From: Octopus vulgaris
Taxonomy: Eukaryota
DNA: 64,000 bases
Assembly: GCA_951406725.2 (NCBI GenBank)
Contig: OX597815.1
Coordinates: 15,190,001 to 15,254,000 of the forward strand
Direction of reading: 5' to 3'
Shown here: in pieces, positions 5,101 through 64,000 of the stretch
How the letters are laid out: every line of letters begins with the position of its first letter
Position numbering within the stretch: the first letter of the stretch is position 1
Translations under genes and position numbers: made by a program
Notes under the pieces: model-generated
What the model saw: the letters and a program-made list of their open reading frames with translations, nothing else
The model's database searches: none
What the model was told of the DNA's origin: nothing

Positions 5101-5147
5101 ACTAATCTTTTTGTATGATGTTTTGTATATTTTTAGGCATCTGCGGT

Positions 5148-5148
5148 C

Positions 5149-5206
<58 letters not shown>

Positions 5207-5238
5207 GTAATAGTAATAGTAATAACAATAACAATAAC

Positions 5239-5272
<34 letters not shown>

Positions 5273-5275
5273 GTA

Positions 5276-5306
<31 letters not shown>

Positions 5307-5332
5307 TGATAATAATAATAATAGTAATAGTA

Positions 5333-5387
<55 letters not shown>

Positions 5388-5411
5388 TAATAATAATAAT
5401 AATAATAATAA
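5148..5411. repeat. (TAA)n microsatellite
   Basis: Seen directly. Confidence 0.98.
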
Positions 5412-5667
5412 ATGCACGCGGATAATGAGCTCCACACACATCGTTAGGAGCTTTCTTGACTTCCTGTCCATCTTCTTTAGCTCCCCCTCTGTCCACTTCA
5501 GGGTTCCAGCGCCATACCGAACTACTGCAACTGCGCGCGAGTTTATTGCCGAAATTATGTTTCTGGCATTCGGCTTTGAAGCCAATATTTTTCTCACTTG
5601 CCGCAGGTGTTCTTTCTTTGTCTTTTCTTTCATATCGTTGTGTTTAATTCCATCTGCCTCAAATAAA
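5412..5667 (-). mobile_element. R4/Dong-clade retrotransposon fragment (RT thumb region)
   Basis: EADGIKHNDMKEKTKKEHLRQVRKILASKPNARNIISAINSRAVAVVRYGAGTLKWTEGELKKMDRKSRKLLT. Confidence 0.8.
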
Positions 5668-6050
5668 CATATGCGTAGGAATACTTGAGATAGATGGAGA
5701 GATAAGACAAAAAAAGAGTACCTGTGGTGAGTTGAAAGCTAGAAACATAATTTCGGCAATAAACTCGCGCGCTGGAATCCTGAAGTGGAGAGAGAAGGAA
5801 CTAAATGAGATGAACAGGAAGACAAGAAAGTTCCTAACGACGCTTGGAGCCCATCATCCACGTGTAAATACTGATCGCCTATACATGAAGAGAGCAAATG
5901 GAAGAAGGGGACTGATAAGTGTGGAAAACTGCGCACGTATTGAACTCGAGAGCTTAATGAGATACCTATTCCAAAGTAAGGAAACCTTGTTAGTGTCAGT
6001 TTGGAACAAAGGAGTACTGAAAGCAGAGAAAAAGGAAGAACAAAGGAAGA

Positions 6051-6051
<1 letters not shown>
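5668..6051 (+). mobile_element. R4/Dong-clade retrotransposon fragment, inverted relative to its neighbour
   Basis: KARNIISAINSR...RKTRKFLTTLGAHHPRVNTDRLYMKRANGRRGLISVE fits the HHP..RLY..R..GGRGL motif; followed by (TTA)n at 6052-6126. Confidence 0.8.
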
Positions 6052-6126
<75 letters not shown>

Positions 6127-6191
6127 GAGTGAGAGAGCAGTACATGTCATCAAAGTGACACTGAGGTAAAATATACGAAGCCCAGTATACC

Positions 6192-6428
6192 TATTTCTTT
6201 ACTACCCACAAGGGACTAAACACAGAGAGGCCAAACAAGGACAGACAAACGGATTAAGCCGATTATATCAACCCCAGTGCGTAACTGGTACTTAATTTAT
6301 CGACCCCGAAAGGATGAAAGGCAAAGTCGACCTCGGCGGAATTTGAACTCAGAACGTAGCGGCAGACGAAATACGGCTACGCATTTCGCCCGGCGTGCTA
6401 ACGTTTCTGCCAGCTCGCCGCCTTGAAA
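6192..6428 (-). mobile_element. Full-length SINE family A with target-site duplication
   Basis: cccagtatacc is repeated at 6181-6191 and 6429-6439. Confidence 0.9.
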
Positions 6429-13373: not shown

Positions 13374-13425
<52 letters not shown>

Positions 13426-13618
13426 AATAAAATAGAACATATGCATATATATAAACATATATGTACGTACCTACCTCTACATGTACATATACACGCATAT
13501 ATGTGTACAGGACACCAAAAAGACGTCGAACACATAGAGAGACGAAAAACATAGACACAAACCAAGGAACAAGACAAGCAAAAAAAAAGGAGATACAGGA
13601 CAATAAGCACAACGAAAA

Positions 13619-13683
13619 ATCCCCTTCTTCAGTCGCTAAGGTTTCATCTACTAAACGTTTCGAAGGATAAAAGCGAGACGTAT
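13619..13683 (-). ncRNA. Non-circularly permuted hammerhead-like motif, core intact
   Basis: acGTC-tcgct-ttt-atcctt-c-GAAA-cgt...agcga-CTGAAGA-a-ggggat. Confidence 0.65.
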
Positions 13684-13776
13684 ACTTCGAAGAAAACTTC
13701 CTTCCTGCGAAAAGCAAATCAATTAAAATTCTGAGATCTTTTCGCAGAGGGGTAAAAAAAGCAAGACGGTAACGAC

Positions 13777-13834
<58 letters not shown>

Positions 13835-14023
13835 TAATGAAGGTGGCTAGACGCAATATAAAACCAAAAAGAAGAATTCATTTGTCACTATTAGAGAACT
13901 GAGGGTGCATTGTAGCACCTACATTGCGCTAAATAAGAGTCAAGGACCCTTATCGCCACAAACATAGCACAGGGGAGTTAACCACCCCACAAGGGTCACT
14001 ATATATTTATATATGTATGCATG

Positions 14024-14157
<134 letters not shown>

Positions 14158-14210
14158 ACAGAACATCCAGACAGACAATATAAAGAAAACGAGGACGGGT
14201 TATTCGGAGT

Positions 14211-14275
14211 TTTCTTTCCTCAGTCGAATTCCAGACTATCTTTGCAATTTCGGCTGCTTACACTCGAGATTGCTA
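14211..14275 (-). ncRNA. Non-circularly permuted hammerhead-like motif (stem II not formed)
   Basis: gcaATC-tcgagt-gtaagcagcc-GAAA-ttgc...attcga-CTGAGGA. Confidence 0.55.
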
Positions 14276-14769
14276 CAATATGGTCAACCCCAAGGTAAAA
14301 CTAAAAAAAGAGCACTAGATACCTTGGAAGAAAGCAGCGAATGTATACGAAAACAGGGACGGAAAAGAAAAAGAACAGAGAAATGGTGCATAAATACACC
14401 TAACAGGGCATTAACAACGGGTGTCTTTCGACTAAGGACGAATTAAATTAAGCTGGCGTGAGTGGAAGTAAAGCCTTATGGCAGGGACATAAGATTTGTC
14501 AAGCACAAGGAGGAATATAGATGTTGCACGGACGGTAGTCGAACCAAGAAAGAAAGGTCAGGCTTGGCTGAACACCGGTCACATGGGAAGAGAAGAGAGA
14601 GAAGTAGAGGCAGAGCGATAGAAGAATTAAGGAGGGGCGAGAGAAAATGAAAGAAGAGGGAAAGTGAGCATGAAGAGGAGGCCAGGAAATGTGATAGAGG
14701 GGGAACGAAAGAACGAAGAGTGGAGAATGAACGAAGTGTGAAAGGGCTGATAGAAAGAAGGAAAGAATG

Positions 14770-25976: not shown

Positions 25977-26070
<94 letters not shown>

Positions 26071-26545
26071 TAGATAGATAGACAGATGCATATATGGGTA
26101 CAGGACGTCATAAAACGTAAACAACATGAAATACGAAAACAAAGTTGAGTACGCAAACAACGAGAGAAACAAGTGGAAAACAATACAAGTATCATAATGA
26201 ACGACTCTTCATCAGTTGTCGGCTGTCCGTCTACGACTCATATATATATATATATTATATTTATTTATATAGAGACACATGTCTTTACACATACGTACAC
26301 ATACAGGTACACGCGCACAAACACATACACACACACAAATACGTATCTCAAAACGTCCTTGTCCAAAATGTTAATACCCTGAAATTCTCTCCCTGCCCAC
26401 GCTTTTTCTTAAAGGCGTTAATCTACAGACGTTTAGAAAATATATCAACTGAAGCACTATCACCTGTTTTTGACAACCTTCCAACATCAAGATCCCATAC
26501 CCCGAAACCCGACTAAATTATAAACGCGTAGTCCCTCCTGCCTGC

Positions 26546-27928: not shown

Positions 27929-28945
27929 ATGACCCGATTGTCAGCAGTGCAGAGAGAACAATCTATCGACCGATTACAAGCAGAGCAGCGTGCCCTGGAT
28001 GTTGCGAAATCTTACAATGTCCATGTTAGCACCATCTATCGCCTGTAACAGCCATGCAACACCCATCAGCACTGCAGACCGTCCCCGCAGAGGGTGCCCC
28101 CGGCTGACCACGTCTAGGCAGGACCGTTTCATCCACCTGTAACACCTCCGTGATAGCTTCAGACCGGCTGGCGTGAGAGCTTGCGAGACCATTAGCACTG
28201 GACAGCGATCCATTACCAACGACACTTTACGTCGTCGGCTGCCCATCAACACCTTGCCTCTGCCGTCGTCCTGCTTGAGGGCCTGTCCTCACTGCCCACC
28301 ACCGTCATGCACGACTAGAGTAGGCTACACAGCACCAGCATTGGCGGCATCAACAATGGAGCTCGATAGTCTTCTTTGACGAAGGTTGGTACTCCGTCTC
28401 CACATCGGGTGGCAGAGCGAGGATGTGGCGTAGGAGGAGTGAACGATACAGAGACGCGTGTGTCATGGAGAGAGACGCGTGGGGTAGTCAAAGCATGATG
28501 GTTTGTGGGGGCTATAGGTCTGAATCAGTGAAATGGGGCCTATGTGTTCCAAAATGTTGGTGCAGGCAGAGGGAATGGCATCACAGTTCAGCGCTACGTT
28601 GACCAAATCCTGAGACCTCACATCGTACTCTTCTTCGCGCGTCACCTTAGTCACATATTCCAGCTGGACAATGCTCCCTCCCACACGGCCAGGGTCATCA
28701 TGGACTTCCTGCGTCAACACAATATCAGAATCATGCTGTGTCCAGCTCTCAGCCAGGATTCGAACCTAGTTGAACACCTGTGGGATGAAATCCAGAGACG
28801 GCTGAACCAGGTGGTCAAAAGGCCGACAAATCCCGTGAAATTAGAGGCAGCTTTCCTCGGGGAGTGGACACAGGTGCCAATGGCTTTTGTGAACCGCCTC
28901 ATGCACTCCATGTATCGACAGTGCATGGCTGTTTTGAACACCCAG
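27929..28945 (+). pseudogene. Tc1-family transposase pseudogene
   Basis: MTRLSAVQREQ...NVHVSTIYRL, DRPRRGCPRLTT, FQLDNAPSHTAR...ALSQDSNLVEHLWDE (DD34E-type); stops and frameshifts; TIRs not found. Confidence 0.88.
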
Positions 28946-29183
28946 GTATTGAACCTTTTACGCCCTACAATCTCGATGTGCTGTATCCGCCTAAAACCTG
29001 TCCGAGTCGCCTTTTTCCAGAAGATTGACAACAACGAAGTGTGACATTAAACAAAACGGTTCAAGAGGACATCAAATTTACACTAGAGACTGACTCACCA
29101 GTAGTCCATTACCATTCTGCTGCATTGACGCTGAACCTTCTGTCACATCTCTGCATTTATCCACATAAATGTTTATCCAAATG

Positions 29184-29568
29184 GATGGAAGCACTCCGTC
29201 GGTTACGACGATGAGGGTTCCGGTTGATCCGATCAACGGAACAGCCTGCTCGTGAAATTAACGTGTAAGTGGCTGAGCACTCCACAGACACGTGTACCCT
29301 TAACGTAGTTCTCGGCGATATTCAGCGTGACACAGAGAGTGACAAGGCCGGCCCTTTGAAATACAGGTAGAACAGAAACAGGAAGTAAGAGTGAGAGAAA
29401 GTTGTGGTGAAAGAGTACAGCAGGGATCACCACCATCCCTGCCGGAGCCTCATGGAGCTTTAGGTGTTTTCGCTCAATAAACACTCACAACGTTCGGTCT
29501 GGGAATCGAAATCGCGATCCTACGACCGCGAGTCCGCTGCCCTAACCACTGGGCCATTGCGCCTCCAC
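29184..29568 (-). mobile_element. Full-length SINE family C with 13-bp TSD
   Basis: gtttatccaaatg at 29171-29183 and 29569-29581. Confidence 0.93.
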
Positions 29569-29659
29569 GTTTATCCAAATGAACAATGCATTTAATGATG
29601 GCAGCAAACATTACAGATGATTAGGAACATCAGTGACTTTAGCCTGGATGATATTTATA

Positions 29660-29894
29660 TATTTGTTTACTACCCACAGGGGGCTAAACATAGAGGGGAC
29701 AAACAAGGACAGACAAAGGAATTAAGTCGATTACATCGACCCCAGTGCGAAACTGGTACTTAATTTATCGACCCCGAAAGGATGAAAGGCAAAGTCGACC
29801 TCGGCGGAATTTGAACTCAGAACGTAACGGCAGACGAAATACGGCTACGCATTTCGCCCGGTGTGCTAACGTGTCTGCCAGCTCGCCGCCTTTT
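29660..29894 (-). mobile_element. Full-length SINE family A with 17-bp TSD
   Basis: cctggatgatatttata at 29643-29659 and 29895-29911. Confidence 0.93.
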
Positions 29895-30232
29895 CCTGGA
29901 TGATATTTATAGCAGACATCAAGGAGGTAGGGATGTGTACGTGAGTTAGAATGTCTGTTGGTGCATGTCTTTTTAACGCCTGTGTTGTGCATGCAAAAAT
30001 GTATATGTGAGTACCAAAAACGCACGTGCAAACATTGAATCATACGTGTGTTCTTTAACTGTGTACAAGAAGCAAGGTGCAAAGATTGCAGACAGTTGCA
30101 TGTAAGTGTGAGCATGTCCACATGCTTACTTAAATGTGTGAATATGTTAAGTGAGTCTGAGTGACTGTTACAGATTTTTATGTTTATGTGAAAGTGATTC
30201 TCTGTGTGTCCGTGTGTCCGTGTGTGTGTGTG

Positions 30233-30270
<38 letters not shown>

Positions 30271-30824
30271 TTTAGTGAAGTTGTGTGAATGTGCTACAGA
30301 TTTTGTATGTGCCAGAGATGGTGTCTGTGTTTGTAATGCTGTGGGAATTGCGCGTAGCTAAGTGTGTGCGTGCGTGTGTGTGTGTGTGTCTGTGTCTGTG
30401 TCTATGTGTGTGAGTGCATCTATGTGCATATCACGTGGCAAGCAGGCAAGGAGGCCAAGTGACACCTGATGATGAGGACTGCCTACTGTCATTAGAGTCA
30501 TCTCTTGAACTATTTAACACTTGAAAGCAACACTCGGAGAGGCACGGGGGAGAAAATTAGAGAGAAAAGTGGAGGGGTGGGGATAAGTGAACAAATAACA
30601 GAAGGAAAAGAAAAGAAAGAAAATAAGAAAGAAAGAGACGTAGAGAGTAACGTGGGGGTGTTTAGGTAGGTGAGAGGTAGAAGTGGAGAAAAAGGAGAGG
30701 CGTGGGAAATGAGGGAGGGAGGGAAAAATTATAAATAGTGAACATATAGTAGTGAATGCAAGGTCGTTGGAAACGGGGTTTTCAGTGATCAGGAGGAATC
30801 GCATCAACAATGAAAATAACTATT

Positions 30825-31608
30825 CTAGTCTACTCTAGGCACAAGGACCGAAATTTTGGAGGAAGGGGGCCAGCCGATTAGATCGACTCTAATAATACGC
30901 AACTGGTACCTAATTTATCGACCCCGAAAGGGATGAAAGGAAAAGTCGACCTCGGCTGAATTTGAACTCAGAACGTAAAGACGGACAAAATACCTATTTC
31001 TATTTCTTTACTACCCACAAGGGGTTAAAAACAGAGGGGACAAACAAGGACAGACAAACGGATTAAGTCGATTATATCGATCCCAGTGCGTAACTGGTAC
31101 TTATTTAATCGACCCCGAAAGGATGAAAGGAAAAGTCGACCTCGGCGGAATTTGAACTCAGAACGTAAAGACGGACATAAAATACCTATTTCTATTTCTT
31201 TATTACCCACAAGGGGTTAAAAACAGAGGGGACAAACAAGGACAGACAAACGGATTAAGTCGATTATATCGACCCCAGTGCGTAACTGGTACTTATTTAA
31301 TCGACCCCGAAAGGATGAAAGGCAAAGTCGACCTGAACGGAATTTGAACTCAGAACGTAAAGACAGACAAAATATATATTTCTTTACTACCCACAACGGG
31401 CTAAACACAGAGAGGACAAACAAGGACAGACAAACGGATTAAGTCGATTATATCGACCCCAGTGCGTAACTGGTACTTATTTAATCGACCCCGAAAGGAT
31501 GAAAGGCAAAGTCGACCTCGGCGGAATTTGAACTCAGAACGTGACGGCAGACGAAATACAGCTACGCATTTTGCCCGGCGTGCTAACGGTTCTGCCAGCT
31601 CACCGCCT
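30825..31608 (-). mobile_element. Tandem array of four SINE A bodies with a single head
   Basis: Junctions near 30991, 31183 and 31373; head only at 31557-31608. Confidence 0.9.
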
Positions 31609-31718
31609 TGTACAAAGAGAGATGTTATTATCAAATTGTAAACGGATATAGAAGAAATTCGGGGAAAAACTTTAGGAAATAGAAAACCGCAAGCAATTCT
31701 AGCAATATATAGTTTGAT

Positions 31719-33928: not shown

Positions 33929-34377
33929 TATAAATGGCCACGTGATTCAGTGTGCCTCATGCTTAATGTGTCTGCTTCTTTCTATGCCATTGACCCTTTT
34001 GCCTTATTTTCCTTGGCTCATTTTATTTTGAATAAAGCAAATTATACTGACCAAAAGTTATTCAAACGTAAAAATCTTTTTCAACTGATCAACAGATCTG
34101 AGAAGACAATGTTATGATGGTGAAGTTCATTTCACCAGAACACGTTTCTATTTGTCCTTTGTATGCATCCCTTTCGTACAAACAAGGAGAAGATATTTTC
34201 TTTTTTCACCCTTAAGCACGTAAATATATTTTAACAAATGAATTCCTGTTTTCTTTATTCAAATCATCTTCCATTTTTGCGGGGAGTCGTGAACAATTAC
34301 CGCTACTTTTTGTTTATTTTCTCCGACTAAGAGGGAATTTTATTTTTATTGTATAGCATCCAAATTATCCAGATTTA

Positions 34378-35168
34378 TACCTATTTCTTTACTACCCACA
34401 AGGGGCTAAACATAGAGGGGACAAACAAGAACAGACATAGGTATTAAGTCGATTACATCGACCCCAGTGCGTAACTGGTACTTAATTTATCGACCTCGAA
34501 AGGATGAAAGGCAAAGTCGACCTCGGCGGAATTTGAACTCACAACGTAACGGCAGACGAAATACCTATTTCTTTATTACCCACAAGGGGCTAATCATAGA
34601 GGGGAACAAACAAAGACAGACATAGGTATTAAGTCGATTATATCGACTCCAGTACGTAACTGGTACTTAATTTATCGACCCCGAAAGGATGAAAGGCAAA
34701 GTCGACCTCGGCGGAATTTGAACTCACAACGTAACGGCAGACGAAATACCTATTTCTTTATTACCCACAAGGGGCTAATCATAGAGGGGAACAAACAAGG
34801 ACAGACATAGGTATTAAGTCGATTACATCGACCCCAGTGCATAACTGGTACTTAATTTATCGACCTCGAAAGGATGAAAGGCAAAGTCGACCTCGGCGGA
34901 ATTTGAACTCACAACGTAACGGCAGACGAAATACCTATTTCTTTATTACCCACAAGGGGCTAATCATAGAGGGAACAAACAAAGACAGACATAGGTATTA
35001 AGTCGATTACATCGACCCCAGTGCGTAACTGGTACTTAATTTATCGACCCCGAAAGGATGAAAGGCAAAGTCGACCTCGGCGGAATTTGAACTCACAACG
35101 TAACGGCAGACGAAATACCGCTAAGCATTTCGCCCGGCGCGCTAACGTTTCTGCCAGCTCGCCGCCTT
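34378..35168 (-). mobile_element. Tandem array of four 184-185 bp SINE A bodies with a single head
   Basis: Unit boundaries at 34378, 34562, 34747, 34932 and 35116. Confidence 0.93.
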
Positions 35169-36107
35169 ATACCAATGGTTCAATTGAGTCATTTCCCCCT
35201 GGTCATTTTATTTCTATCGGATAATACACCTATGTTTCTCTCTCTATCTCTTTCCCTATTAATCTCTCAACCACTGTCGGCCAAGTATGTCTTTCCCTTC
35301 TTTCTGTCTCTTTCTTCTGTCACTATCTTCCTCTTTCGAGATCAGCAATCCTGTCTCTCCTTATCCGTTTCTCTTTATCCGTTTCTCTTTATCCGTTTCT
35401 CTTCCTCTTTATTAACACTTTGCTCTACTGTTACCTCGCATACACACTCACACATACACACGCTTATCTCTCCCCACCCCTCTCTCTCTCTGTCTCTCCT
35501 GTCCTCCCCTTTCACTATCTTTCTCTCTCTCCTCTTTCTGACTACATTTCTCACCCTTTTACTCCAATTGTTCGCCAGTCACCTCTTTCACTTTCCTCAT
35601 CCTTCCACTCCTACTCAGTCTCTGAACACATCCTATAATTTATACTAGAACCTCATGTGGACGCTCGATATGCTAGAAATAGCAACCGAATCTCTCTCAG
35701 ATTAAACCCAGTCAAATTATTTTTTTTTTAAATAAAGGACATACTGCATAATCTGATCCTGGTTGAAAAGTATATAATAAACACTTGGGTTAATCCCGGC
35801 ATGAATGCCTTTGATCCTAGTTTTGTTGAAACGGAACTAACCTGAGGTTAAGCAGTGCCATCATATTGTAGAATACAATAGATGACGTCACAGCTGCATC
35901 AAATCATTGACTGAAAAATGTCACGTCCACCACCAAGCAATGCACACACGCACATGCACTGTGTGTACGTGTGTGAATGTGTGTGGCGTGTTGCGTGTGT
36001 GTGTTTGTGTATCTTCCTTGAAATGTCTCCGTCAATTGTTTATCTTCTAACAATAAGAAGTATTTTCCAGCATCCGCCACCACCAAAACAATAATCAAAA
36101 TTATTTA

Positions 36108-36828
36108 AGGCGGCGTGCAGGCAAAATACTGAGTGGCATTTCGTCCGTCTTTTTTTGTTCACAGTTCAAGTTCCACTGAGGTAGACTTTATCTCTCATCT
36201 TTTCGGGGTCGCTAAAATAAATACCTATTTCTTTACTACCCACAAGGGGCAAAACACAGAGAGGACAAACAAGGACAGACATAGGCATTATGTCGATTAC
36301 ATCGACCTCAGTGCATAACTGGTACTTAATTTATCTACCCCGAAAGGATGAAAGGTAAAGTCGCCCTCGGCGGAATTTGAACTCACAACGTAACGGCAGA
36401 CGAAGTACAGCAAAGCATTTCGCCCGGTGTGCTAACGCTTCTGCTAGCTCGCTGCCTTAAAATAAATACCAGTCGGTAAAATAAATACCAGTTGATCACT
36501 GGGGTCGATGTCATCGACTTGCACCCTCCTCCCAAATTGCAAGCCTTGTACCTTTAATAGAGAGGAATGTTGTTGTTGTTGTTGTTGTTGTTAAGGCATC
36601 TTGCTGGCAGAATCGTTAGCATACCGGGCAAAATGCTTAGCGGTATTTCGTCTGTCTTTACGTTCTGAGTTCAAATTCCGCCGAGGTCGACTTCGCCTTT
36701 CATTCTTTGGTGGTCGATTAAATAAGTACCAGTTACGCACTGAGGTCGATATAATCGACTTAATCCGTTTGTCTGTCCTTGTTTGCCCCCTCTGTATTTA
36801 GCCCCTTGTGGATAGTAAGGAAATAGGT
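36108..36828. mobile_element. Cluster of nested SINE A copies in both orientations
   Basis: A minus copy at about 36223-36458 interrupts an older plus copy; a further plus copy lies at 36595-36828. Confidence 0.85.
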
Positions 36829-37281
36829 AATATAAAATTTTCCTTTTTTTCCTTTTCTTTTTTGCTGCTTTGTTTTATACGAGCAATTACAAGTTTCATC
36901 CAGACACCCAGAGACCTCAGGTAACAACAAGTTGGACGCTGCACCATGAACGTTATTTATGATTAGTAATGATATAGTTTTATGTGAAGGAGGCCCGAAT
37001 CTTAGAACTAAGATTCTGTTAAATTTGTAATATATCAGTTTTTATAGAGTTTTAAGAGAATCAGGTATTTTCAAGTTGCCAATATTTTTCTAAGGATCTG
37101 GGCATTACACACACAACACACAATACAAATACTAATACAACAAAAGACTGCAGCCAAGTAGTTATCTTCTCGACCAATTCAAGATTTGCCCGCTTTTGCA
37201 AATAAATGCGAAACTTATAGCTTGTTCGTTGTTTTCATAACTTGGCAGGGTAAACGTTTGTGGCTTTATAGTTTTGCTGCA

Positions 37282-37460
37282 GGCGTGGCTGTGTGGAAGC
37301 ACAGGCGTGGCTGTGTGGAAGCACGGGCGTGGCTGTATGGTAAGAAGACTGCTTCCCAACCACATGGTTCCGGGTTCAGTCCAGTCCAACTGCGAAGCAT
37401 CTTGGACAAGTGTTTTCTACTATTGCCTCAGACACACGGAAACTGAAAGAAGCCCGTTGT
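37282..37460 (+). mobile_element. SINE family B fragment with a triplicated 20-bp head segment
   Basis: ggcgtggctgtgtgg unit occurs three times. Confidence 0.75.
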
Positions 37461-37654
37461 GTGTGTGTTGTGGAGGTAACTGACACTCCCGCACGTGACA
37501 TTCAGTGGACTGGACCAGTCTTATAAAAAGATAAGCCAGGAGACAGTTGAGGTCGAACTGTGAAAGTGTCAGTCTCGTTATTGATTCTACTTTGGAGTAT
37601 TGGATTATTGTGCAAGCGGTTATAATAAGATAACCAACTCTTGCTACATTGCTT

Positions 37655-38064
37655 AGCTGGCAGAGTTGTTAGAACGCCGGGCGAAATGCTTAGCAGTATT
37701 TCGTCTGCCGCTACGTTCTGAGTTCAAATTCCGCCGAGGTCGACTTTGCCTTTCACTCTTTCGGGGTCGATTAAATAAGTACCAGTTACGCAGTGGGGTC
37801 AATATAATCGACTTAATCCGTTTGTCTGTCCTTGCTTGTACTCTCTGTGTTTAGCCCCTTGTGGGTAGTAAAGAAATAGGTATTTCGTCTGCCGTTACGT
37901 TCTGAGTTCAAATTCCGCCGAGGTCGACTTTGCCTTTCATCCTTTCGGGGTCGATTAAATAAGTACCAGTTACGCACTGGGGTCGATATAATCGACTTAA
38001 TCCGTTTGTCTGTCCTTGTTTGTCCTCTCTGTGTTTAGCCCCTTGTGAGTAGTAAAGAAATAGG
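37655..38064 (+). mobile_element. SINE A tandem dimer with a single head
   Basis: Junction aaagaaatagg-tatttcgtctg at 37880. Confidence 0.9.
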
Positions 38065-38462
38065 TAATATCTGGTACTGTGATATATCGTTGCACACACA
38101 TCATATATCATCACTGACGATATAACAATATGTATGTATGAGTGTTTGCTCTACCACCACCACCACAGCTTGTCAACCGGTGTTGGTGTATTTACGTCCA
38201 CGTAACTTAACGGGCTGAAAAAAGTACTAGTTGATTCACTCGACTGAGACCCTTCAAGGCGGTGCCCCAACATCGCCGCAGTCTAGTGACTGATATAAGT
38301 AAAAGATGAAAGAAAGAAAGATGAAAATGTCATTGGTGTTGACGATACTGTTGTTAATTGAGTCATTCATATCACTTTACTTCACTAACAATCCGCAACG
38401 GAGAAGACTAGAATTATCGTTATTTTTGTCCGAAACGTTAGCAGTCTCTTCATTATTACTTA

Positions 38463-42171: not shown

Positions 42172-42319
42172 CATATATATTGTGTATGTATTTATGCATA
42201 TATGGGTACAGGACGTCACCAACTGTGTAAACAACATGAAATACGAAAACAAATGAGTTAAATACGTAAACAACGATAGGTAAAAAATGGAAAATAGGAC
42301 AAGTAAACATAGAGAAACA

Positions 42320-42380
42320 ACCCTTCATCAGTTGTCGGCTGTATATCTACTCATTTCGAGCATTCACGGACAATATGAGT
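42320..42380 (-). ncRNA. Non-circularly permuted hammerhead-like motif, core intact
   Basis: actcATA-ttgtc-cgtgaat-gctc-GAAA-tgagt...gacaa-CTGATGA-a-gggt; stems III 6 bp, I 5 bp, II 4 bp. Confidence 0.7.
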
Positions 42381-42896
42381 CTTCAAAGACAGATGCTCCC
42401 ATTAATTCCAAAATTAAATTTAGGATTTATGGAGGGTCAAGGTTGGGAATAAAAACAGGACAGTGGAGACACACAAGGAAACTGAACGAAAAAATACATG
42501 GAAGGTCATTAGACCAGAACGAGAGGAAAATAGTGAATGCTGGGAGAAATATTTTCTTTGAAAAGAGAAAAGATAGAAGAGAGAGAAAGAAAACGTTCAG
42601 TCATTTGAACGTCCTTGCAGGAAAAGAAAGATGGTCACGTGAGGAAAAGAAAGACGGTCAATGGTCACGTGGGAGCAACGTAAGAGAGAAAAAGAGAAAG
42701 AGGGAGAGAGACATGTAGATAGAAAACGGTGAAAGGGAGAAAAAGGGAATTAGAGAAGGGGGAAGAAAACAGTATAGAGTAGAGTCGCATCAAAAAGGTT
42801 AAGATAAATTTACTTGGAAATGGATGCGTGGCGTTAAATTAAATAATAATATAAATAACATATATATATGTGCATGTATGTACGTATGAATGTATA

Positions 42897-61258: not shown

Positions 61259-64000
61259 ATTGATTGATTGATTCTAGTTTCAGCTTATGAGCTGTGGCCA
61301 TGCTGGGGCACCGCCATTTGGTGTTGCTACCTGGTTTCACTTCATGGAGGCTTTCTAGCAACTGCTATTTGGTGCATGAGAGAGTTCGATGCAGCTGCCC
61401 TCATCTGCCCCTCCTGCCGTGAAGTTGGTTCATCTGGGACACCTGACAGGAAGAGATCCAGCTTCATTTTAAAGACATCTGTATCCACCCCATGCAGGTC
61501 TCTCAGGTTCTTCGGGAGGATATTGAAGAGCTGTGGGCCTCGGAAGCCCAGGCTATCACAGAATCTTGTCCTACATCTTGATGGCAGGTTTGGAGTCCTA
61601 GGCACTACGCAGTGGCGCCCAGTTCTGGCATTTGCGTAACTCTCGATGCCAAAGTTCAGGACACTTCCCTCCAGGATCTTCCAGATGTATATTATGGCAT
61701 ATCTTTCCCGCCTACGCTCCAGAGAATATAATTTTAATCTCTTGAGTCTTTCCCAGTAGCTTACATTCTGCATAGAGGCTATCTTCTTTGTGTAGCTTCG
61801 TTGGATCGCCTCAAGTTCTGTGATCAACTTGACACTGGATGGTGACCATAGCTGAGAGCAATAGTCAAAGTGGCTTAGGACAAGTGTCTTCCAGAGGACC
61901 ATCATGGTTTTTTGTTCTCTTGTTCTAAAGGTTCTAAGAATCCATCCAGCCAGCCGTCTACATTTCATTGTCAGTTTAGCAACATGTACATGAAAGGTCG
62001 CGTCATCACTCATGTGAATACCCAGGTCACGCACTGATTGTGCCTCTGGGATTGCAATCCCTCCGGGTCCAGTGTATTCATTGGGTATTGCATTCAGCTT
62101 TGCATGCTGATAGTATAAAGCTTGAAACTTTCCAGCATTGAACTGCATGCTATTCTTTTCAGCCCACTTGTATATTTCGTCCAGCTCACATTGCAGATGT
62201 TTAGTGTCCTCAGGGTTCTGTATTGCCTGTGAAACTTTTGTATCGTCTGCATAACTTGTAATCGTGGCTCTCTGCGTGGCTGAGGGCATGTCTGAGAGGG
62301 CCATTATGAACAGTAGTGGTCCCAGAACAGTGCCCTGCGGAACACCGCTCACTATTTGTGTGTTAATGGAGGTGGCCCCATTGGCTACTACCACCTGACT
62401 TCTATCCTTCAGAAAGTCATGAAGCCATTCTCCCAGTTTTCCAACTATGTTGAGATCACGCAGTTTGTGACATATCATTCCATGATCGACTTTATCAAAG
62501 GCCTTTGCAAAGTCGAGATATATCACTTCCACATTTGAGTGGTTGAGCAGCCGTTTCAGCACCCAGTCATAGTGTTGTAGGAGCTGAGTTAAACAGCTTC
62601 TCCTGGTCGGAAACCATGTTGGGTGTCGGGCAGCAAGTCATTCTCTTCAAGGAAGGTGATCAGCTTCCTTCTGACTATTCGTTCCATGACCTTGCTGATG
62701 TGTGAGGTCAGAGAGATAGGTCTATAGTTCTTGGCTTCCGCTCTGCTACCTCCTTTATGAATGGGGCATATTTTACCTTCCTTCAGTTTTCCTGGAAGTT
62801 TGCCAGCTGCAAGGAAGCTCTGAAAGAGGAACTGCAGTGGTCTTGCTAGGACTCTCTTACATGCTTTTAGGAGGATTGCCGGGAATCCATCGGGGCCAGT
62901 AGCTGAGTCTGTTTTCATTTCATCTATAGCCTTGGTTACATCGTCTTCCTTTATATCGATGTAATCTATCGTCGCCGCCTCTGATTTTATATCTGCAGTG
63001 GTAAAAAAGTCAGTTGGATTGGTGATTTGGAGATGCCCAAGGGGTGGAGTGAAAACACTCTTGAATTGCTCATTCAGTATTTCACTTACCCTCATTGGTT
63101 TTCCTGTAAGTGTGCCATCCTTTTCGAGGAGTGGCCCTATTCTACAGTGCACTGTAGCTGTTTCTTTGGCATACCTGTAGAAAGCTCTGGGGTTAGATTT
63201 TATGTTTTCTATAGCCCAGGCTTCTTTGTCTGCTCTTTCTTTTTCATGGGAGAGTTGCAGACATTTTTCGATTTCCAACAGTTTTATTTTTAGGCGGGAC
63301 TTTTCACTGCTTTCAATCTGTTTGTATAGGCGATTTGAAAATTTCGTACGCCGTCTCATTAAAATTTTCCTCTCTCTGGGGATTTTGTTCTTGTGTACAG
63401 TGGCCTTTCTCTCTGGGACACATTTGTAGCATATGGCTTGCATTACAGACATGAATTGTTGAAGTTTCACGTCGATGTCTGGCGAGGAGAGACATTTAGG
63501 CCAGTTTTGTTTGAGGATCTCTTTGTCAATTTGTTTCCAGTTTGCCTTATGGTAGTTCAAGCTGGAAAGATTTTGAGGGTTTCTTGTAGGCTGCATGTCC
63601 GTGCTCTCTTTTGGCCCGTACATGGTCAGCTCTATCATGTTGTGATCCGAGAGTAGTGTCGGTGTCACTTTCACATTATGGATGAGATCCATGTCATTTG
63701 TGAAGCAGAGATCCAGTGTGTTACCTGCCCTGGTTGGTTGGAGTATTACCTGCTCCATGTACAGGGTGTTGATGAGGTTCAGGAGGGACCTCGCCTGTCC
63801 TCGTTCACATCTTGTCATTCCTGGGAGAGAAAGGCCCTCGGGCCATCTGACATTGGGCAGATTGAAGTCTCCCATAAGAAGCACACCTATGTGTTGCTCT
63901 AATGTGGTTAGAATTTCTTCTATTTTTATAAGGCAGTCTTCAAACTTGCCCACATGGCTTGGGGCATCTGGAGGGCGATATGTAGCACACACAACTACAT
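61255..64000 (-). mobile_element. Young CR1-group LINE, runs off the window; (AATC)n tail
   Basis: APE motifs (YRPP, GDFN, LDLCF, SDH), RT motifs, short 3' UTR and tail. Confidence 0.95.
61342..63992 (-). pseudogene. LINE ORF2 (APE endonuclease plus reverse transcriptase) split by one frameshift near 62600
   Basis: 467 aa and 406 aa ORFs; QHGFRPG|RSCLTQLL is restored by adding one A; YLDFAKAFDKVDH, GVPQGTVLGPLLF, YADD. Confidence 0.92.

Follow-up and report, generated by a model that had tools for sequence, protein, structure and literature searches.

The question raised by this locus is whether a short segment of the Octopus vulgaris genome, lying within the window (the whole 64,000-nt stretch of DNA analysed here), encodes a self-cleaving hammerhead ribozyme, and how such a ribozyme would be built. 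Our analysis leads us to consider it quite probable that the minus strand carries a self-cleaving hammerhead with its motifs in the order S-G-C and its core opened between A9 and G10.1, located in a non-coding tandem element likely moving as a Penelope-dependent retrozyme. The core elements on this strand are the following:

13681-13678, minus strand: 3' strand of stem III, ACGU (read from the sequence)
13677, minus strand: C17 of the GUC triplet (read from the sequence)
13676-13672, minus strand: 3' strand of stem I, UCGCU (read from the sequence)
13672..13681, minus strand: S block, made up of ACGU, C17 and UCGCU (predicted cut 13677/13676)
13667-13662, minus strand: 3' strand of stem II, UCCUUC, with C11.1 at 13662 (sequence and covariation)
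13661-13658, minus strand: GAAA (read from the sequence)
13657-13655, minus strand: 5' strand of stem III, CGU (read from the sequence)
13655..13667, minus strand: G block, made up of UCCUUC, GAAA and the 5' strand of stem III (sequence and covariation)
13637-13633, minus strand: 5' strand of stem I, AGCGA (read from the sequence)
13632-13626, minus strand: core CUGAAGA (read from the sequence)
13625-13619, minus strand: AGGGGAU, of which AGGGG is the 3' strand of a helix termed Pa
13621..13637, minus strand: 5' strand of stem I, CUGAAGA and the Pa 3' strand AGGGG (sequence and covariation)

The hammerhead core (C3UGANGA9, G12AAA15.1 and U16.1-H17) and its three surrounding stems are thus all present, with the cleavage site followed by GAAA and then by CUGAAGA. 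Types I, II and III are defined by the orders CGS, GSC or SCG; the ribozyme in the window, being SGC, is none of these, and it also lacks the contiguous block of the published type SGC. A descriptor for the S-G-C order returned two matches in the window against none in 200 dinucleotide shuffles, and, with the stem II condition removed, it found three S-G-C cores there (13677, 14268 and 42374). The original prediction, an intact non-circularly permuted hammerhead at this site, stands with regard to the block order, the GUC triplet and the catalytic nucleotides (ACGU at 13681-13678, C17 at 13677, GAAA and CUGAAGA). It also stands for stem I (agcga/ucgcu, 5 bp) and stem III (acgU/Acgu, 4 bp), both of them Watson-Crick throughout and covarying across families, and the cleavage predicted from the sequence between 13677 and 13676 agrees with the covariation of the S block. 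Two measurements needed correction: the distance from GAAA to AGCGA is 20 nt, 25 nt being the distance to CUGAAGA, and the ribozyme does not stop at 13619..13683 but reaches approximately 70 nt further 5', to 13752.

The predicted stem II was not supported. The proposed pairing of ggggau with auccuu can be drawn, but it places an A opposite a C at 10.1/11.1, and this 6-bp helix was paired in only 64% of alignment cells, a value equalled in 319 of 500 shuffles. A perfect partner of UCCUUC is found upstream instead, in the strand GAAGGA (13704-13699), together with two extra helices and an extension of stem III:

13748..13752, minus strand: 5' strand of Pa, CCCCU, pairing with the AGGGG that directly follows CUGAAGA; first of the two extra helices leading into the core (covariation)
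13705..13747, minus strand: Pb hairpin with the 10-bp stem CUGCGAAAAG/CUUUUCGCAG, joining Pa to G10.1; second extra helix (covariation and folding)
13699..13704, minus strand: 5' strand of stem II, GAAGGA, supplied from upstream, with G10.1 at 13704 (pair count)
13686..13695, minus strand: 5' strand of a helix termed Pc plus GAA, extending stem III (by eye, without pair counting)
13642..13652, minus strand: AGUA plus the Pc 3' strand GAUGAAA (by eye)

The chain accordingly runs from the Pa 5' strand through the Pb hairpin, the stem II 5' strand, the stem III extension, the S block, the G block, the second half of the extension, the stem I 5' strand and CUGAAGA to the Pa 3' strand. As the Pb hairpin links Pa to G10.1, A9 and G10.1 are not joined in this layout. 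Pc, recognized by eye in four families, pairs the strand that follows the stem II 5' strand with the strand preceding the stem I 5' strand; the AGUA/GAA loop within this extension looks like a bulged-G (loop E) motif in families A and B, and its counterpart in family N looks to us like a kink-turn. The upstream position of the stem II strand also bears on experimental design—a minus-strand transcript of 13700-13600, as had been suggested for in vitro cleavage, loses most of GAAGGA, and a false negative could result.

Pair counts were obtained from 16 aligned copies of families A and B, which were picked by hand, mostly as fitting copies; the pool comprised 43 distinct cores of these two families together with additional pattern matches. 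A four-family MAFFT alignment misaligned families D and N, and those four rows were excluded from the count. In the 16 rows, the opened model had 96.9% of its cells paired, a share that none of 500 shuffles attained and that compares with 37-48% in slid controls, and it showed compensatory changes at 13 of 26 pairs. The compensatory changes fell in five helices (stems I, II and III, Pa and Pb), and they count as few events because they mainly separate two related lineages. Upstream stem II was paired in 100% of cells, with three of five pairs compensatory, and Pa in 98.6%, with one compensatory pair within A/B and other sequences in D and N; the mean pair probability of Pb was 0.99.

An ordinary contiguous type-SGC ribozyme would account for much of the same sequence if the G-run after CUGAAGA formed stem II, with one extra A following A9, and if the upstream helices served only to store or regulate the RNA. 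Such a downstream stem II exists in a 4-bp register (G10.1-C11.1, with two G-U pairs) that is 100% paired in the 16 A/B rows, and an extra nucleotide at this point has a precedent: according to the accessible part of PMC3705267, the CChMVd (+) hammerhead tolerates one, A10, at A9-G10.1. That case concerns a single nucleotide in a circularly permuted hammerhead, whereas the ribozyme in the window has two helices and a chain break at the same step. The downstream strand could, by eye, also pair with AGUAGAUGAAA; a contiguous fold combining the extra A with this helix was tried and dropped on family comparison and pair counts. The duplex energy of the 4-bp stem is about 0, and this stem would be incompatible with two stronger covarying helices; the 6-bp register remains at shuffle level. 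The nested part composed of Pa, Pb and upstream stem II reaches -24.6 kcal/mol, against -14.3 for Pb plus the stem II first proposed.

The comparison of families is decisive here. Four of them (A, B, D and the Naiad-type N) share the opened layout, although their sequences differ in every helix: stem II reads GAAGGA/UCCUUC in A, GAGCA/UGCUC in B, GGCUGG/CCAGCC in D and GACACC/GGUGUC in N, and Pa reads CCCCU/AGGGG, GACCCU/AGGGUC, UUUCUU/AAGAAA and CCA/UGG, respectively. A downstream stem II of at least four pairs can be drawn for 23 of 24 distinct cores of A and 17 of 19 of B, yet for none of 13 in D and none of 15 in N. Since D and N cores allow no contiguous stem II, the families decide for the opened layout over the downstream stem, and we regard the contiguous alternative as conceivable in A and B but on the whole quite unlikely. 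An opened fit was found for 14 of 24 distinct cores in A, 11 of 19 in B, 4 of 13 in D and 8 of 15 in N, at least four of these fits being in the wrong register and many of the misses being visibly truncated or mutated. When the upstream 110 nt were shuffled, the observed fit was reached in 0 of 2000 trials for each of A, B and D, and in 27 of 2000 for N. Through all this change in the helices, CUGANGA, GAAA, U16.1/H17 and A15.1-U16.1 were kept.

Copies of families D and B lie in the window as well:

14211..14333, minus strand: family D copy laid out in the same way, with cleavage predicted after 14268 (AUC) and a downstream stem II impossible (sequence and fit)
42318..42439, minus strand: family B copy laid out in the same way, with cleavage predicted after 42374 (AUA) (sequence and fit)
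26070..26240, minus strand: family B-type copy truncated within the ribozyme, only the CUGAUGA side being left (sequence)

The family D copy, approximately 450 nt from the ribozyme described above and the third ribozyme copy in the window, has a G-U pair in the upstream stem II strand where its relatives have G-C; this family yielded 1422 first-look candidates, with 84-89% identity among those scored. Genome-wide, the A/B core pattern gave 5257 matches against one in a reversed control. Further opened-ribozyme subfamilies with other helix sequences were noticed at L018 (minus strand, near 2494), where the Pa partner may be shifted by 8 nt, at L284 (near 7641 on the minus-strand count) and at L285. 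The window also contains, by eye, a LINE reverse transcriptase-like fragment (61342-62637, minus strand), a Tc1/mariner transposase-like fragment (28532-29044, plus strand) and a fragment resembling another non-LTR element (5133-6169, minus strand), along with a high-copy dispersed repeat, probably SINE-like, with tandem steps of ~184 nt in both orientations (6043-6425, 29511-31711 and 34375-38066).

Standard searches did not recover the ribozyme. At gathering score, Rfam had no match anywhere in the window, and none of the 34 matches with E up to 10 in 13400-14450 was a hammerhead. Nested folding missed the opened fold (z of 0.43 and -0.69, with a pair probability of 0.007 for upstream stem II); because the fold is pseudoknotted, nested folding is uninformative. 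Taken by themselves, the lack of an Rfam hammerhead match and the non-significant folding z-scores are what chance pairing in a purine/pyrimidine-rich repeat would produce. The absence of matches in 200 shuffled windows, the compensatory changes in five helices and the layout shared by four families and published Naiads have largely refuted that explanation, and we give it next to no weight. We also considered that two transcripts might cleave as a dimer through a self-complementary stem III, in the manner of minimal Penelope hammerheads; dimer cleavage has reportedly been seen for Penelope-associated hammerheads, and the family A stem III is indeed the palindrome ACGU. This stem is non-palindromic in B, D and N, however, and all partner strands are available in cis, making a dimer very improbable.

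The closest published relatives are the type-SGC hammerheads, HRIMA-1 and variants (Eckert et al. 2023, PMC10085705), which, in the sections of that paper available to us, have the S-G-C order, the core nucleotides, the 3-4 nt linker between stems I and II and the pseudoknotted stems in common with the octopus ribozyme. Those authors assumed CUGAnGA and its flanking stem strands to be contiguous, with at most 1-2 inserted nt, whereas in octopus an upstream segment supplies the stem II strand via two extra helices. A further helix ascribed to type SGC links the outer flanks of stems I and II, and Pc may be its counterpart in octopus. According to the same sections, none of the published SGC examples had been located in the genome of a known organism, whereas the copies described here are genomic and belong to an animal retroelement. 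The HRIMA-1 alignments might hold similar opened cases. We found no published description of the opened-core layout in a literature search that covered few subscription papers.

The distribution of the layout connects it to Naiads. These Penelope-like elements were reported to lack canonical hammerheads, with eight of them, including Naiad_Ovul, flagged as HHR_half_core, and cephalopod Naiads were described as long inactive (Craig et al. 2021, PMC8557442, in its accessible parts). By eye, the 3' ends of the consensuses available from that source for Naiad_Ovul, Naiad_Obim, Naiad_Plae and the Naiad listed before Naiad_Plae can be read as the opened layout, and the Naiad_Ovul/Obim 3' motif had 273 genome matches against none in a reversed control. 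Four Naiad 3' passages in the portion of the PMC8557442 supplement at hand, one ending just before Naiad-3_Nbra, appear by eye to be clean type-CSG hammerheads, so non-circular permutations of more than one kind may occur among Naiads. In the octopus genome, a ribozyme core lies 0.8-1.4 kb downstream of the C-terminus of a Naiad-type reverse transcriptase (RT) at 12 of 30 loci, and no core was found within 1.5 kb of it at the other 18. The Naiad-type RT core itself matched RVT_1 weakly (E of 1e-5, below the cut-off), DKA and RT motifs were confined to separate broken loci, and no intact copy was detected among 150 candidates scored of 3098, the longest open frame being 292 aa.

The element that hosts the ribozyme in the window is of a different kind:

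13419..13777, minus strand: host insertion, a ~359-nt 5'-truncated 3' end of the ~835-nt non-coding tandem element that defines family A, with (TA)n on both sides

Its limits had been placed at 13498-13775; the repeat actually ends near 13419, inside the TA tract, and starts at about 13777. In the genome searched (2.8 Gb in 227 contigs), the host repeat gave 2025 first-look candidates, with 98-100% identity in the 40 scored, and an exact 30-mer of family A gave 739 matches against none in a reversed control. Units are spaced by 832-886 nt in 16 arrays, each with one hammerhead; one family A array, at L022:1930-1990 (plus strand), abuts an inverted Penelope-like fragment with an apparent ordinary minimal hammerhead of palindromic stem III. 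The unit has no credible ORF, and in particular no GIY-YIG/RT ORF with a DKA motif; a 280-codon frame was rejected as a gene on account of a stop and low complexity. Family A insertions have their 3' end fixed in (TA)n and scattered 5' ends, and they combine the (TA)n insertion bias with 5' truncation, partial tandems and an inverted 5' copy, an inverted piece being present at L200. All of these habits are also found in Naiads, as far as PMC8557442 could be consulted; unlike Naiads, family A is young, has no RT and shows no sequence similarity to the 3' end of Naiads. Two full units are separated by 1.8 substitutions if they come from one array (13 pairs) and by 15.6 if they come from different arrays (263 pairs), and segment pairs with zero substitutions make up 26 of 37 within arrays against 18 of 743 between them.

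Such an element could be propagated as follows. The helices would reassemble the active site of the hammerhead, Pa and Pb spanning the gap between A9 and G10.1. Transcripts of tandem copies would be cut once per unit, and a transcript running through two ribozymes would free an RNA of unit length. Monomers might then be re-ligated into circles, and a Penelope-type reverse transcriptase would prime at (TA)n and copy round the circle to yield arrays. If copying of the circle always began at one point, the resulting arrays would have a constant 3' end, a 5' end at any position and units that hardly differ, although local duplication could be an alternative source of the array homogeneity. The predicted circular fold of the unit has a z of -3.5 against 30 shuffles, with only 46% of it paired. 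The solo truncated copy in the window, with its one ribozyme, is probably a dead-end insertion.

By analogy, the host element likely functions like a retrozyme. The non-LTR animal retrozymes covered in the available portions of PMC7229834 and of a recent preprint (Li et al. 2026, 10.64898/2026.07.22.740005) likewise consist of tandem units that are non-coding and contain a single hammerhead, occur as dispersed monomers and multimers and behave in a Penelope-like manner, and the family A unit length falls within the 51-972 bp range given in the preprint. Animal retrozyme RNAs are described as being ligated to circles (Cervera and de la Pena 2020, PMC7229834, as far as accessible). The same portions define non-LTR retrozymes by type I hammerheads and circular RNA, whereas the family A ribozyme is non-circularly permuted, opened and missed by type I descriptors.

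The fold might instead be conserved as a signal for retrotransposition, through RT binding or template positioning, with in vivo cleavage slow or absent. None of 23 family A insertions had its 5' end at the cut site (the nearest lying at +7, in two cases, and at -20), and copies pass through this position; the templates were therefore either uncut or re-ligated. One of 30 Naiad-type copies (L097) and one of 30 family B loci (L120) do have a 5' end there, the join being ambiguous against the TA tract. A signaling role would also fit the finding, in the part of the retrozyme preprint available (10.64898/2026.07.22.740005), that only one of nine elements tested cleaved, which calls for caution with predicted ribozymes, as well as the lack of a precedent for the opened core in the literature searched. 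On the other hand, re-ligation would account for the intact templates as well, and core nucleotides kept while all helices changed are the pattern expected for catalysis. We consider a purely structural role unlikely and favour the self-cleaving, opened hammerhead.

A mobiliser for family A was sought among Penelope-like elements. Young loci of this kind (L282-L290, e.g., G000:C1:9002495) carry intact RT frames of 713-782 aa with, by eye, a cysteine-rich linker and a C-terminal endonuclease-like region; one such element, with a 753-aa frame, has a Neptune-like layout by eye, its Pfam match being RVT_1 only. This Neptune-like element is a candidate mobiliser. It has no SGC core, and its best match to the ribozyme-bearing 3' ends is 19 nt (E of 0.56); no homology of family A to an intact Neptune-like element or to the Naiad 3' end was found. 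Its 3' repeat contains a possible variant minimal hammerhead around the palindrome ACCGGU.

A broader interpretation, which we hold with less assurance and still find rather more persuasive than not, is that this hammerhead has a topology outside the six-permutation scheme, with four separable pieces, a five-helix junction and an entry at A9-G10.1; that it is the missing ribozyme of Naiads across phyla; and that it also runs a young circular-RNA retrozyme family in octopus, outliving the catalogued Naiads. If true, the CUGAnGA block would be separable from stem II, against a standing assumption about hammerheads, and the A9-G10.1 step would give those who engineer ribozymes a point of access to the core that already exists in nature. 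Descriptor and Rfam searches would then undercount genomic ribozymes, and animal genomes would contain thousands of copies of non-circularly permuted hammerheads. The HHR_half_core cases left open in the accessible parts of Craig et al. (PMC8557442) would be resolved, and a role of hammerheads in Penelope-type transposition would become testable in a clade thought to be without them.
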